A stretch of 64,000 nt of DNA from a virus (Duplodnaviria; Caudoviricetes): positions 64,001 to 128,000 of IMG/VR virus record IMGVR_UViG_3300031992_000016. One strand, written 5' to 3'. The translations under genes were made by a program, and so were the position numbers. This document shows positions 17,132 through 22,342 of the stretch, piece after piece (the first letter of the stretch is position 1; each line of letters begins with the position of its first letter). The notes under the pieces are model-generated. The model was not told the DNA's origin. It ran no database searches and saw only the letters and a list, made by a program, of their open reading frames with translations.

Positions 17132-17137
17132 TTAAAT

Positions 17138-17172
17138 GGGTAGGTCTAGTTGGAAGACATACCCTATTTTTT
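17138..17172 (+). terminator. probable Rho-independent terminator
   Basis: GGGTAGGTCT-N7-AGACATACCC stem (1 mismatch) followed by TATTTTTT. Confidence 0.55.
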
Positions 17173-17201
17173 ATATTCAACGAGAGGAGGGTGCTGCCAA
17201 T

Positions 17202-17678
17202 ATGGAACAGTATGATTTGCTGGAATACTTTCTAAAATGGTTTATTCCCTTCGCTTGTGCTGGATTGTTTGCGGTGTGTGTCAAACCACTAATTGATGCT
17301 ATTAAACGCGGCAAACGCAGTGCGCGCGATGAGGAATTTAAACGTGCTTTTGAGCATGAAATTGCTCCTGTATAGGAATAGTTACAAACTATTGCTACCA
17401 AGAGTGAAAGAGAGGATAGTCGTTTAGAGGGGAAAATTGACGGGCTGTCCAAAGAAATTCAGCAGGCCACCGCCGGTTTGCGCGAAGCCATTTTGGTTAC
17501 TCACTTACGAGATTTAATCGCAGACAGCAAGCGCTATATAAATCAAGGTTGGTTATCAGCCGATGAGTGGGAAGATTATGATAACAGATATAACGTATAT
17601 AAAATGCTCGGCGGAAATGGACATATGGATGCTTGGTACCCCAAAGTAAAAAATTTACCGCAACATCCAGTTATATAA
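17202..17678 (+). CDS. membrane-anchored LGGNG-motif phage protein (holin-associated type), 158 aa, 2 TAG
   Basis: GAGGAGG RBS; N-terminal TM helix, coiled coil, YKMLGGNGH; TAG-GAA-TAG joins track ORFs 17136..17375 and 17478..17678. Confidence 0.7.
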
Positions 17679-17729
17679 AAAAAAATAAAGGGACGTAGAT
17701 AAAAAATCTACGTCCCTTTATTTTTTTTT
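17677..17729. terminator. bidirectional terminator between convergent operons
   Basis: A-run-TAAAGGGACGTAGAT/ATCTACGTCCCTTTA-T-run perfect inverted repeat. Confidence 0.9.
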
Positions 17730-18138
17730 ACCCTACAACAGGTGTTTTCTTTTCATTAACCAATGATTCAATATATGCCTTAGTGAATAGATCAAAATCA
17801 CCTACGACCGCGGTTAGATACTGCTTAGCATCTTCACTTAATACTGTAATTACGCTATTGTAAGTTAATTGAAATGCTTCTTTCTGTGCTTCCGCAGTGA
17901 AAGCATTTTTATTCTTTAAAGCATTAACATAAGTTTGGTTCGTCATTTCTACGCAACGAGCAACTGTATCTTCAAACATACTTAAATACTTGTAATATAC
18001 AGTATCCTCTTGACCAGCTTTATAATTGTCGATCTTTGCGCGAACCCACTTAACAAAATAAGTAGTCAATATCCCCAAAAAAGGAATGATAACTAACTTA
18101 AAAATCTCATTTAAAATTTCAGCCCAATTCATTGTCAT
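17728..18138 (-). CDS. putative holin (LL-H-like, single N-terminal TM)
   Basis: GGAGG RBS before MTMNWAEIL...; TM LVIIPFLGILTTYFV; TNQTYVNALK; last gene of the lysis cassette. Confidence 0.65.
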   Translation of the reverse strand: MTMNWAEILNEIFKLVIIPFLGILTTYFVKWVRAKIDNYKAGQEDTVYYKYLSMFEDTVARCVEMTNQTYVNALKNKNAFTAEAQKEAFQLTYNSVITVLSEDAKQYLTAVVGDFDLFTKAYIESLVNEKKTPVVG

Positions 18139-18475
18139 AATCCTCCGAATTATCTTCTTCGTTATTATCACTAATTGCTGCTGCATCTTGTATTTCTTTG
18201 TATGTTTCACTTATCTTTTTATAATTCTCAATACCTGCTTTTGCAGTATAACCCAAACGTAAGGAAACATATACTGTTGTTACACCAGCCAAGGCGCTTG
18301 AACCAAAAGATGCTAATCCTTGATTAATAACAACAATAGCAAGAATTGCCAAGAGTGATACAGCATATACGACAATATCTATAATAGTAAGTCGCTTACT
18401 CCATTCAAGCGGTCGCTGTTGTCGCTTTCGCTAATTTTTGGAGCGCTGCTACTAATTCTTTTGCTTCTATCTCAC
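18119..18475 (-). CDS. two-TM lysis-cassette membrane protein, 118 aa, 4 TAG in first 15 codons
   Basis: AAGGTGG RBS, GTG 18475: VR*KQKN**QRSKN*RKRQQRPLEWSKRLTIIDIVVYAVSLLAIL...AKAGIENYKKI; overlaps the lysin 3' end. Confidence 0.6.
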
Positions 18476-19823
18476 TTGAACACGCCACCTTTACATACCA
18501 AGATTTTGGTGTATCAGGTGTGGTAGGTTCAACAGGCACAGATACAGGAATTAAAAATTCATTCATCATATATCCGGTCTGTCCGTTATACATAATGCGG
18601 TCCCATTCAGTGCCATGATCAATAATATCAACAATAGTCCCAGTTGATATTTTTGCTATTACACCAAAATTAGTGCCCGCGCCAGAACGCATACGCACTG
18701 TCGTGCCGCTTTTTGATTTTACTGTTGCCTAGTATAACACTGATAAAACCTCCCCTTCTGATGTACCAGCATTTGCTAGTTCTTCTGGTGTATATAAACC
18801 CGCGGGGATTGCATAGTGCGTCCAGCCATATGTACCTAATTCTTGACGTTTAACGCCAGACTTGCTACCAGCTGCATGCATAAAAGTGCCATCGCCCAGA
18901 TAAACACCAGTATGTGACATTGGATTAGATGTTGGTGATTCATGATATAAAGCACAAATCTTATCTTTTGGCATCTAATCAATTGGTCCTTTTCGCACCC
19001 AGATACTTGATTTCCATTGTGAAGATGCGCCAGATACTAAGGAAATACCAATTTGCGCGAAGCATAACTTCGTAAATCCTTGGCAATCATAAACCTACTT
19101 ACCGAGCCACTTCTTTACAATGTTATAATCAACTTTGTCTGGATATTGAGCAATACGCGCACGAATAAATTGTTCGGTTGCAATTTGTCCTTGAGCACCA
19201 TAGATATAACCACAACCTTCTTTACTTAACGCATACTCTCTGATTACTTTCTCTTTCTCCTATGAGGTCATTACTTCAAATACCTCCTTTACTACTGCAC
19301 CAGGATAATAAAATTGTAAAATATCCTAATATGTAAAGCCCATATTTGCCATCTTCTTTGCGCCAACTTGGCTCATACCAACACAATGTCCATTGCGCGC
19401 AGTAGTTGTATAGGGGTCATCTTTACTAACTAGCCAAGCGCGTTCTCCACCCCAGACTTCTTTAGAGCTTTTTATATGTCCGCCATTGCTAGAAGAGAAA
19501 GGCACTGGGCTACATAAAGTGTTTTTATATGTTAAAACTAATGCATTAGTTGCTTCAACACAACGATAAGTAGCAGCATAAGCATTATCAATTGATCTCG
19601 AATATCGATATGCCTAATGCTTAGCGCTATTATCTGTCATATTTTTAATAGTATAAGCATTAGTTCGTGCGGCAATTGCTTGGGCTTTTACAGCTTCATC
19701 CGGCCCATTCATTTCACTAGGAACACAACCTAGCAAATATGTTTCTGGATGAATATTGATCGTGTCATTAACATTAACGCCCCAAGCTTCCGCATTACTT
19801 TCTCTTGTTAAAGTTAATCTCAT
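18405..19823 (-). CDS. endolysin: SpoIID/LytB + NlpC/P60 + SH3b, 472 aa, 6 in-frame TAG
   Basis: YLLGCVPSEM, EAVKAQAIAART, H*AY, GHCVGMSQVGA (SpoIID); YIYGA, DCQGF, HTGVY, MHA (NlpC/P60); VRMRSGAGTNF...GYMMNEFL (SH3b). Single frame to TGA. Confidence 0.9.
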
Positions 19824-20983
19824 TATAATTTCTCCAATAAAAGCGCCCATTGCGCATGTGTTATGGGGGTTTCAACTTCATCTATATTATCTGGGATTTC
19901 ATAATTTTCATTACGCCCTTGCAATTGATGCATTAATATATCGTAATGGTTCTACGTAATTGGAATGTCATAATCCCAATCCAAAGTGTTAATAGCTGGC
20001 ATAATGGCTGCCATTTGCGCACTTTCTTGTGTTAATCTATTAACATGGCCGATAAACTAACGACATAATGTATATGCAGTCATTAAGTCATCAATCTAAA
20101 ACATAGTTTCATTCTCATCTTCTAATGTATCAATAAAAACAAAAGAAGCGCTTCGATAGAATTCATTTGATGTATCTAATGAACAACCTGCTGAACCAAC
20201 TATTTTAGAGTCTAAAACTGCACATACTTTAACATATAATGAAGGTGTTGTGTTAATTTCATTATAGTTTTTTGTACCAAGAAACGATGTTAAAGGAACA
20301 ATCATAGATGTCTAATTTGTACGTTCCGTATCAATCCAACCTAAAGAAACTAATTCTCCACTGTTTGGAGTTAATAATGTTTTATCATTAGGCCCAGCAA
20401 ATACACCCACAGAATAATGATCAATTGTACCAGTAAAATTTTCTGGTGGAGACCAGCGCACCGCTACACGATTATAATACTAAGGCCATACTTCTATTTC
20501 TACTGGCGCTGGAATAGAAGTATCAATAGTTAAACTACGATAGTAAATACGTACATCTACATAACTAATAATAATCGTTCCATTAATTGCGTAAGGCCAA
20601 AATGTAATCTAAAAAGTTTGGCTTGTCTTATTAGTCAAACCTGTTATTTCATATTCATAACTGCCAAACGTTGAACCATTAATATTGCGAACTGGAAACT
20701 CTGAACTTTCTAAATAGTTAGTCCCGAAACCAACTCGTCCTTTACAATTCATTTCATAGTTAAAATCAATAACAGCTTTTGTAATTTCAACTCCGCCAGG
20801 AGGAGGATTACGTAATGTACAATTAATAGAAATAGTAGTGCCGCAGAATTGTAATTCTTCAACTGCTGCGGCCTGTGGAACATGTATATAAGTCGCCGGA
20901 GTTTCGGCGCACTATGAACTACTTTTAATTGGTTGCCCAGATGCTATGGGATAATATGTATATTTACAATTTACATTCGCCAT
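19823..20983 (-). CDS. hypothetical protein with FN3-like segment, 386 aa, 7 TAG
   Basis: Open in code 15 from ATG 20983 to TAA 19823 (TAATG coupling to the lysin); VRWSPPENFTGTIDHYSV resembles FN3. Confidence 0.65.
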
Positions 20984-21006: not shown

Positions 21007-21345
21007 TTATTCACCATCATCTGCGTCTAAATCTTCACTAGAAGAAAAATTAACATACATTTCAAAATTGTCTCCACCATTGTATGTTTCTTGAATAGAT
21101 GTAATTCTACCTTGAACATCATTTAAATCATAAATATTATTACCACTATCACCTTTAATAGTAATACGAGAAACAGTCTGTGGCATTAAAGTATTCAAGA
21201 AAGTGGCGGTACTTGCACCAGGAACCAAACTAATATAAGCATTGCTTACTAAATCATTCTGTTCCTTGTCATATGTAGTAGTACGACTATAATTTACGAG
21301 TTGAATAGCATGAGCTGCGTCACTATTAAAAATAATTGTTGCCAT
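21007..21345 (-). CDS. hypothetical acidic-tailed protein, 112 aa
   Basis: AAGGAGGT RBS before MATIIF; no TAG. Confidence 0.7.
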   Translation of the reverse strand: MATIIFNSDAAHAIQLVNYSRTTTYDKEQNDLVSNAYISLVPGASTATFLNTLMPQTVSRITIKGDSGNNIYDLNDVQGRITSIQETYNGGDNFEMYVNFSSSEDLDADDGE

Positions 21346-21358
21346 TAAAATGACCTCC

Positions 21359-22342
21359 TTATAAATTACCAAATAATAGTATATAACTATCATCTATTGT
21401 ATTTATATCAGTAGCGCTCGCCCAGCACCATACTGACATAATCGCATTAAATAACATATCTTTATTTGTCTATGTTATCTAATTATCTTTAAGTAATTGG
21501 CCTACTCTTTTATCAAAATTTGACCGTAAAATTTTTTCATCATAACCATCTTTATTTTTTCGCATCTAACAATCCCATAATTTTCCATCACAATCAATAG
21601 TGAATGAATCAATGCCTGCCATACAATGCGGAGTTTGTTTAGGTACTTCTATGGTTCCAAACCATTTATAATAATTCTCTGCATCATAACCGAAATAACG
21701 ACCAGGCACTTCAATGGTCGGCTTTGCACCGATATCATCAATATTAATATATGGTCTTTTTTCTACTAAAGGTATCATTTTATCATGTAATTCCTACGCC
21801 CATGCATACCAAACTGTAGAGTCGGTGCGCAAATTAATTTTAGTTAATGTCGATTTAGTAGATATTTTTAACTAAAAATTATTGGTCGGCATTTTCGTTG
21901 GGCAAGAATAAATTAAATGCTCTAGCGCGCGGATTGAATTTTTATACGCACCTTTCTAACGATTAAAATCATTCATATCTTCTGGACCATCAATATTAAA
22001 TTGGATATGTAATGTTACATCATATGATAATAATGGCATGACGAAATAACGGTATAATTCTGATGTACCGTTTGTAGAAAACATAATATTTTTGATTTGC
22101 GGCCATCGCTTTAAAATTGCAGTAATCATTGCTGAAAAATATGGTCCATTAAGTGATGGCTCCATTCCCCATAATCCAATACTGGTAGTTTCTGGGGTGA
22201 TAGTTTCAAGAATGGTTTTTGTAAATGAACCATTCTTGAAACACTCCTAAATGCGTTTATTATCATGCTCTTGATATTGCATACAACAATAAGCACATTT
22301 TAAATTACATGCATCGGAAAAATAAATGTTAAGATTTTTCAT
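21359..22342 (-). CDS. radical SAM protein with Twitch/SPASM-like auxiliary motif, 327 aa, 7 TAG
   Basis: CNLKCAYC at residues 12-19, WGMEP, STNG, NIDGP, C-terminal C-x12-G-x4-C (CMAGIDSFTIDCDGKLWDC). Confidence 0.88.

Follow-up and report, generated by a model that had tools for sequence, protein, structure and literature searches.

The gene examined here lies on the minus strand of a 64,000-nt stretch of a Caudoviricetes genome (IMG/VR record IMGVR_UViG_3300031992_000016), the whole of which is called the window in what follows. The window corresponds to C1:64001-128000 of a 168,960-bp contig carrying 33 tRNA genes. The gene is open over its full length only when TAG is read as Gln, and its product is best explained as a lysin with two catalytic domains, one of the SpoIID type that cleaves glycan strands and one NlpC/P60 cysteine endopeptidase, and with an SH3b wall-binding domain and a short helix towards the C-terminus. 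Because genes for a membrane protein and a holin follow directly downstream, it belongs to a lysis cassette as its endolysin. An earlier note, made from the sequence alone, had proposed that two internal ribosome-binding sites with start codons give rise to two further, nested products, each with TAG as its fourth codon serving as an amber gate of its own. Comparison with related genes favours the nested products; the gates are not conserved and do not survive it.

Domains, relatives and genetic code

Pfam places SpoIID (PF08486) at residues 23-99 (47.1 bits against a gathering score of 23), NLPC_P60 (PF00877) at residues 242-338 (34.6 bits against 23) and SH3_3 (PF08239) at residues 375-424 (32.4 bits against 27). 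A profile built from 73 homologues and compared with the PDB matched SpoIID (4rwr, E = 1.8e-33), C40 peptidases and SH3b domains. In the AlphaFold model, whose mean predicted local distance difference test score is 88.6, the SpoIID fold reaches about residue 180. P60 follows, from a helix at 187-200 as far as about 345. Residues 351-360 form a linker modelled with low confidence, the SH3b barrel begins at about 358-364 and ends at 426, and residues 442-467 make up a C-terminal strand and helix. In the P60 domain, D246, C247 and H304 do not vary among the 73 homologues, and H336 hardly does. Judged by these conserved residues, by the P60 score above gathering and by the existence of standalone P60-SH3 genes (see below), the downstream catalytic domain is intact, as the predicted active short isoform needs. 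The protein has 526 database homologues, many of which share the three-domain architecture. Variants also occur: L001 and L012 (297 aa) are SpoIID-SH3b proteins without P60, L009 and L010 (563 aa) have the order SpoIID-P60-PG_binding_1-SH3b, and all of them keep a GAGGTG...GTG internal start before SH3b.

Nucleotide sequences of relatives were found by alignment-based scans, a query with the single protein having given one locus. The resulting sample comprises 24 relatives and the window gene, 25 sequences in all, with 43-83% identity to the window gene and a median pairwise identity within the set of 50%. A blastn search with the lysin gene gave no match among GenBank phages, and tblastn gave weak P60-SH3 matches alone, in unannotated human-gut phage contigs.

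That TAG is read as Gln in this phage, in a recoding of the code-15 type, is well supported because TAG replaces nearly all CAG in the minus-strand late genes and because TAG columns in the DNA alignment of the lysin family line up with Gln codons. Real Gln codons (CAA or CAG) stand opposite TAG in 36% of comparisons, with Lys next at 11%, and decoding as any residue other than Gln was rejected on this ground. The plus-strand early genes contain zero TAG. The marks of code-15-type recoding are all present, namely TAGs inside conserved domains, a phage tRNA(CUA) and late and lysis genes rich in TAG. Division of the open reading frame (ORF) into three separate genes in the standard code was rejected, since the TAGs fall inside conserved domains.

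The suppressor tRNA(CUA), detected with ARAGORN (anticodon given as cta), lies beyond the window at C1:37355-37447; none was found within the 64 kb of the window itself. It is 93 nt long, has an extra arm roughly 20 nt in length (a CCCTC-TGAA-GGAGG hairpin), resembles the phage's own tRNA-Gln(CUG) in the D-arm and anticodon stem, and sits in a 13-kb block that holds the 33 tRNA genes. Gene starts in the window have strong Shine-Dalgarno (SD) sequences of the AGGAGG type, and homologues with two of the domains come from metagenome-assembled genomes (MAGs) of Oscillospiraceae and Clostridia from rumen and gut. The source is best explained as a roughly 169-kb TAG-to-Gln phage of gut or rumen Clostridia.

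Internal start sites in the endolysin gene

Endolysin starts internal to the gene have been classified as Type I when they lie between two catalytic domains and as Type II when they lie before the wall-binding domain (PMC12203907). The gene in the window has a candidate of each type (Table 1). Site 1 reads ATG ACC TCA TAG (19271-19260, codons 185-188) and is placed between the catalytic domains, SpoIID ending at about residue 180 and the P60 helix beginning at 187. Site 2 reads GTG TTA TAC TAG (18740-18729, codons 362-365); it comes after P60, the last catalytic domain, and the linker at 351-360, and before the wall-binding domain. Both are in frame with the 472-codon ORF. The SD and start motifs, spacers, frame and fourth-codon TAGs described in the earlier note were confirmed on the minus strand; its arithmetic for products of 472, 288 and 111 aa is right, and its placement of the starts at domain boundaries agrees with both Pfam and the AlphaFold model, site 1 preceding P60 and site 2 preceding SH3b.

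Sites of this kind are rare. In 60.7 kb of coding DNA there are five in-frame combinations of a strong SD and a start; three are evident true starts of over-extended ORFs, and sites 1 and 2 are the only truly internal pair. When in-frame starts with an SD energy of -7 or below were scanned in 28 sequences, they piled up in two places, the columns corresponding to residues 184-188 and to residue 362, and elsewhere formed scattered noise.

The earlier note had also held that the internal SDs are stronger than the GGAG of the main start, and duplex energies with the anti-SD bear this out: the main start scores -6.4, whereas site 1 reaches -13.0 and site 2 -12.4. The window's true gene starts span energies of -5.8 to -14.9, which places both internal sites among the best. 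In 12 relatives, too, main-start SDs are weak (-0.8 to -9.8) and internal SDs strong. The overlap of the main ATG with the stop codon of the upstream gene, together with its weak SD, suggests translational coupling and a low ratio of full-length enzyme to short isoforms. An alternative main start at ATG 19850 was rejected, as it has no SD (+0.9) and homologues begin at the Met at 19823.

The SD and start of site 2 overlap a conserved peptide, E-V-x-x-V-L-Y-Q-A, whose conservation could alone yield SD-like letters, and synonymous positions were therefore examined. At codon 362, 24 of the 25 genes have GTG and the remaining one ATG, against a GTG share of 16% among the Val codons of these genes. 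Glu358 is encoded by GAG in 23 of 25, GAG making up 25% of Glu codons overall. Residue 357, when it is Gln, is encoded by TAG or CAG in seven cases out of seven and never by CAA, the majority Gln codon, and the SD is then extended to AGGAGGT. Control columns do not behave in this way: 12 other conserved Val columns mix all four codons, and four other conserved Glu columns have 14-16 GAA and 1-3 GAG. Synonymous resampling from each gene's own codon usage gave p values of 0.0015-0.024 for a start with an equally strong SD in 18 of 19 sequences, the one exception being the sequence that bears ATG (p = 0.15). Among the 73 proteins, residue 362 is Val in 70 and Met in three, and nothing else. Site 2 is retained both in the P60-less L012 and in L009 and L010, with their extra PG_binding_1 domain ahead of SH3, and bacterial P60-SH3 homologues have an SD and start within a few codons of the same place.

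At site 1 it is the linker between SpoIID and P60 that has changed, its residues reading KEVFEVM, EEKKEEIIM, GEEEEKKM, GEVSIM or EKEVVPV in different relatives. Despite this variation, each of the 22 fused genes examined, the window gene included, has a purine-rich SD 6-11 nt ahead of an in-frame ATG, GTG or TTG at the aligned place in the linker. A prospective test was provided by six homologues selected for their lack of Met there (P0025, P0028, P0037, P0047, P0058 and P0071). Three proved to have GTG and three TTG, a codon that accounts for 11% of Leu codons, and an SD lies upstream in all six, with energies of -10.2 to -16.3 in five and a weak -7.6 in L215. The earlier note had proposed conservation of the SDs in relatives as a check, and at both sites SD and start are indeed kept, even where synonymous codons would have served or the surrounding linker has changed.

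In some relatives the same place is a gene boundary. In the human-gut sequences L055, L057 and L066 the SpoIID gene ends, at TGA TAA stops, within GAGGTGATAAAATG. At this junction P60-SH3 begins as a gene in its own right, in another frame, with ATG ACC TCA, which are the first three codons of the site-1 product in the window. L056, a further human-gut relative, shows an identical two-ORF split, and the ORFs lie at about 986-1625 and 1629-2420 in each of these four sequences. An origin of internal starts by gene fusion has been proposed in the work that introduced the two types (PMC12203907), and for site 1 the split-gene relatives support such an origin directly.

A different arrangement is seen in three further relatives, where an in-frame TAG stands two codons upstream of the first internal start (TAG CCN TTG/GTG, the TAG being codon 192 in L214, 189 in L216 and 195 in L219). 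The Gln codon at that position is TAG in three out of three. Read in the standard code this is a stop-then-start gene junction, and read with TAG as Gln it is a fusion; the joining of SpoIID to P60-SH3 may in some lineages have been created by recoding itself, or be code-dependent.

Because both starts are conserved and the split-gene relatives begin at site 1, a three-isoform lysin is well supported, and we consider it probable, from comparison of sequences, that both internal sites are used and that three nested products come from the one gene. The sequence anatomy of the two sites is under purifying selection. The full-length enzyme would be initiated weakly, probably through coupling to the upstream gene at TAATG, and ribosomes would start independently at ATG185, giving a P60-SH3b protein of 288 aa as a Type I short isoform, and at GTG362, giving SH3b alone, 111 aa, as a Type II isoform. 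If they behave like those of CTP1L, CD27L, Lys170, LysIME-EF1 and Ply2638A, the short isoforms would be expected to be made in excess and either to assemble with the full-length enzyme or to act beside it; the production of the polypeptides, the isoform ratios and assembly are all drawn by analogy from such lysins. At site 1 the start of a P60-SH3 gene that once stood alone has probably been kept. The six in-frame TAGs would be instances of the exchange of CAG for TAG seen in late genes throughout the phage, and all catalytic isoforms would depend on tRNA(CUA).

Several points weigh against this reading. The three polypeptides and their assembly are predictions from comparison and analogy. A start at codon 362 would lose a short strand predicted at residues 358-361 in the AlphaFold model. 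The synonymous resampling at site 1 gives modest per-sequence p values, from 0.000 to 0.19, because much of the signal there sits in the choice of linker amino acids. The sequences are related and their counts are not independent events, which the scrambled control columns mitigate. Finally, the anti-SD sequence behind the duplex energies was assumed, not read from the host.

Table 1. Features of the endolysin locus, in window coordinates
Feature	Position	Strand	Description
Endolysin gene	18405..19823	-	472 codons, open when TAG = Gln; stop TGA 18407-18405
Endolysin layout	aa 1-472		SpoIID-like aa 1-180; NlpC/P60 aa 187-345; SH3b aa 362-436; conserved C-terminal strand and helix aa 442-467
Main start	19821..19835	-	ATG 19823-19821; weak SD GGAG 19835-19832; ATG overlaps the TAA of the upstream gene (TAATG)
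Internal site 1 (Type I)	19269..19290	-	SD AAAGGAGGT 19290-19282, N10, ATG 19271-19269 = codon 185; predicted P60-SH3, 288 aa
Internal site 2 (Type II)	18738..18755	-	SD GGGGAGGT 18755-18748, N7, GTG 18740-18738 = codon 362; predicted SH3b and C-terminal tail, 111 aa
TAG codon 70	19614..19616	-	SpoIID domain; relatives CAA, CAG or TAG
TAG codon 166	19326..19328	-	In-frame TAG
TAG codon 188	19260..19262	-	Codon 4 of the site-1 product; common only to the window and L048
TAG codon 243	19095..19097	-	P60 domain, GKQ motif; relatives mostly CAA or CAG
TAG codon 283	18975..18977	-	P60 domain
TAG codon 365	18729..18731	-	Codon 4 of the site-2 product; family-conserved Gln position
Membrane-protein gene	18119..18475	-	Begins within the final 71 nt of the lysin gene, other frame; phrog_37691, function unknown; lysis cassette
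Holin	17728..18132	-	phrog_13712, E = 2e-25

Alternative explanations and the codon-4 TAGs

The split relatives prove that fused and split forms interconvert at exactly site 1, and this raises the question of whether site 1 might be an unused relic of gene fusion, the former ribosome-binding site and start of P60-SH3, with site 2 alone, or neither site, functional. The modest per-sequence p values at site 1 are in keeping with such a relic, but the persistence of the site is not. SD and start remain in 22 of 22 fused genes examined, at 43-83% identity to the window gene, while the linker residues have changed freely, and a lost Met has been replaced by GTG or TTG in six cases of six, not by Val or Leu codons that cannot serve as starts. 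A neutral remnant should have decayed at such divergence, as the scrambling of the control columns illustrates. We therefore regard the relic as an improbable explanation.

The individual amber gates of the earlier note fare worse, and that each codon-4 TAG was selected to control its own nested product is very unlikely. Both TAGs are truly at codon 4, and the chance of finding TAG there after both sites, estimated from counts of Gln codons, is roughly 0.3-4% depending on how look-elsewhere effects are treated; L218 also reads GTG TTA TTT TAG at site 2. Conservation of these TAGs in relatives, proposed in the note as a further check, is wanting, however. At site 1 the window gene shares its TAG with L048 (83% identical) and no other relative, L049 and L050 (71% and 69%) having GCT and GCA, the split genes AAT and others a variety of codons. 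At site 2 the fourth codon in the 25 sequences is CAA in 14, CAG in three, AAA in four, another codon in two and TAG in only two, the window and L218; 17 of the 25 thus write Gln as CAA or CAG, even L048 having CAG. Nor do true genes across the genome carry an excess of TAG at codons 2-15, where there are 0-2 per position against 0.59 expected, and any TAG further downstream would gate a product equally well. The presence of TAG at codon 4 after both starts is most likely a coincidence, and not an extreme one, because Gln is conserved at residue 365 and about one third of the Gln codons of the gene are TAG.

The distribution of TAG along the gene also speaks against a gate on the smallest product. 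In the SH3 segment, 3 of the 61 Gln codons are TAG, whereas SpoIID and P60 together have 63 among 297 (Fisher p = 0.0018, the sequences not being independent). This count took in L048-L050, L211-L213, L003-L010, L051 and L053-L055, the SH3 part being the equivalent of 18405-18740 in the window. The SH3 segment is thus depleted of TAG and the smallest product therefore ungated in most relatives; among recoded relatives, 15 of 19 are without TAG in it. A possible cause of the depletion is selection for making the wall-binding subunit efficiently or without dependence on the suppressor.

SD-like motifs have been considered to make ribosomes pause, an idea that stems from the ribosome-profiling literature and is disputed there, and the two motifs might on that view be pause sites aiding co-translational folding, as their location at domain boundaries would fit. 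Pausing needs no start codon at a fixed spacing, yet codon 362 is invariably GTG or ATG, and site 1 always has one of ATG, GTG and TTG and is moreover a bona fide gene start in the split relatives; this explanation is highly improbable. Chance, in the form of SD-like stretches of purines in Glu, Lys and Gly codons that happen to precede Met or Val codons, might draw on the GAGGT of site 2 being partly forced by the conserved Glu-Val dipeptide, but it is effectively refuted by the strong synonymous conservation relative to internal controls. The two sites are also the sole internal in-frame sites of their kind in the coding DNA surveyed.

Known systems, recoding and neighbouring genes

Internal starts in endolysins are already known and common. 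They are predicted in about 50% of endolysins from phages of Gram-positive hosts, and several have been verified, always with two isoforms (Pinto et al., PMC9430671), described as being of one or the other type. The Type II lysins, which include the clostridial CTP1L, CD27L and CS74L, the enterococcal Lys170 and LysIME-EF1, and LysP7951, resemble the present gene in having an in-frame ribosome-binding site and start ahead of the wall-binding domain, in their Gram-positive hosts and in an internal ribosome-binding site stronger than the main one, fitting an excess of the short subunit (PMC9430671, PMC12203907). They differ in that the wall-binding domain here is SH3_3 with a C-terminal helix, and in that the lysin here, which is known from sequence alone, adds a second internal start and in-frame TAGs. 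The profile search of the PDB returned none of CTP1L, CD27L, Lys170 and LysIME-EF1 at E<=0.001, and the resemblance is one of organisation and not of descent.

The Type I lysins, such as Ply2638A (M23-amidase-SH3b) and LysA of mycobacteriophage Ms6, likewise have a start between catalytic domains that yields a short isoform with a catalytic and a wall-binding part. Here, in contrast, the catalytic domains are SpoIID-like and NlpC/P60, and starts of both types are found together in a single gene. We found no description in the open-access literature, as a weak negative, of the two types of start in one gene or of a three-product endolysin.

The phage also resembles the TAG-to-Gln recoded gut phages (bioRxiv 10.1101/2021.08.26.457843; PMC9523058), with its TAG-free early genes, TAG-rich late and lysis genes and tRNA(CUA). 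Its hosts, like theirs, are of the Firmicutes type, as indicated here by the strong SDs and by the homologues in Oscillospiraceae and Clostridia MAGs. Their lysis genes are preferentially recoded, and internal starts are not discussed (bioRxiv 10.1101/2021.08.26.457843). What sets the present family apart is that TAG density differs between the segments unique to the nested isoforms, and for this reason the family offers a natural test of how recoding bears on nested translation. A tentative and rather unlikely extension of the three-isoform reading is that recoding gates the isoforms unequally across the family. The TAG-bearing catalytic isoforms would need the suppressor tRNA, and the nearly TAG-free SH3b isoform would accumulate efficiently, or earlier, to form a multi-subunit wall-binding platform. 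The phage in the window, with one TAG at codon 4 of its SH3b isoform, would then be an exception.

If a widely conserved family does combine both types of start in one gene, its lysin would be a three-component system encoded by a single ORF. This would bear on the annotation, expression and engineering of lysins, and cloning of the full-length form only, or codon optimisation that silences the internal sites, could give a poorly active enzyme.

Downstream of the lysin gene, the membrane-protein gene encodes two predicted transmembrane helices and contains four early TAGs. It begins within the final 60-70 nt of the lysin gene, and this overlap is conserved in L211, L213, L215 and L216. Within the lysin gene, codon usage is unusually uniform at residues 454 (GCA in 15 of 18) and 461 (CTC in 9 of 16), which the gene overlap may explain. 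The holin probably starts at ATG 18132, which has a GGAGG SD and is codon 27 of the long ORF, and not at the GTG at 18210 that would give the longest ORF. Longest-ORF starts are probably wrong for 17136-17678 (+), 17728-18210 (-) and 21007-21393 (-), where a strong SD with ATG occurs at codons 23, 27 and 17, respectively.

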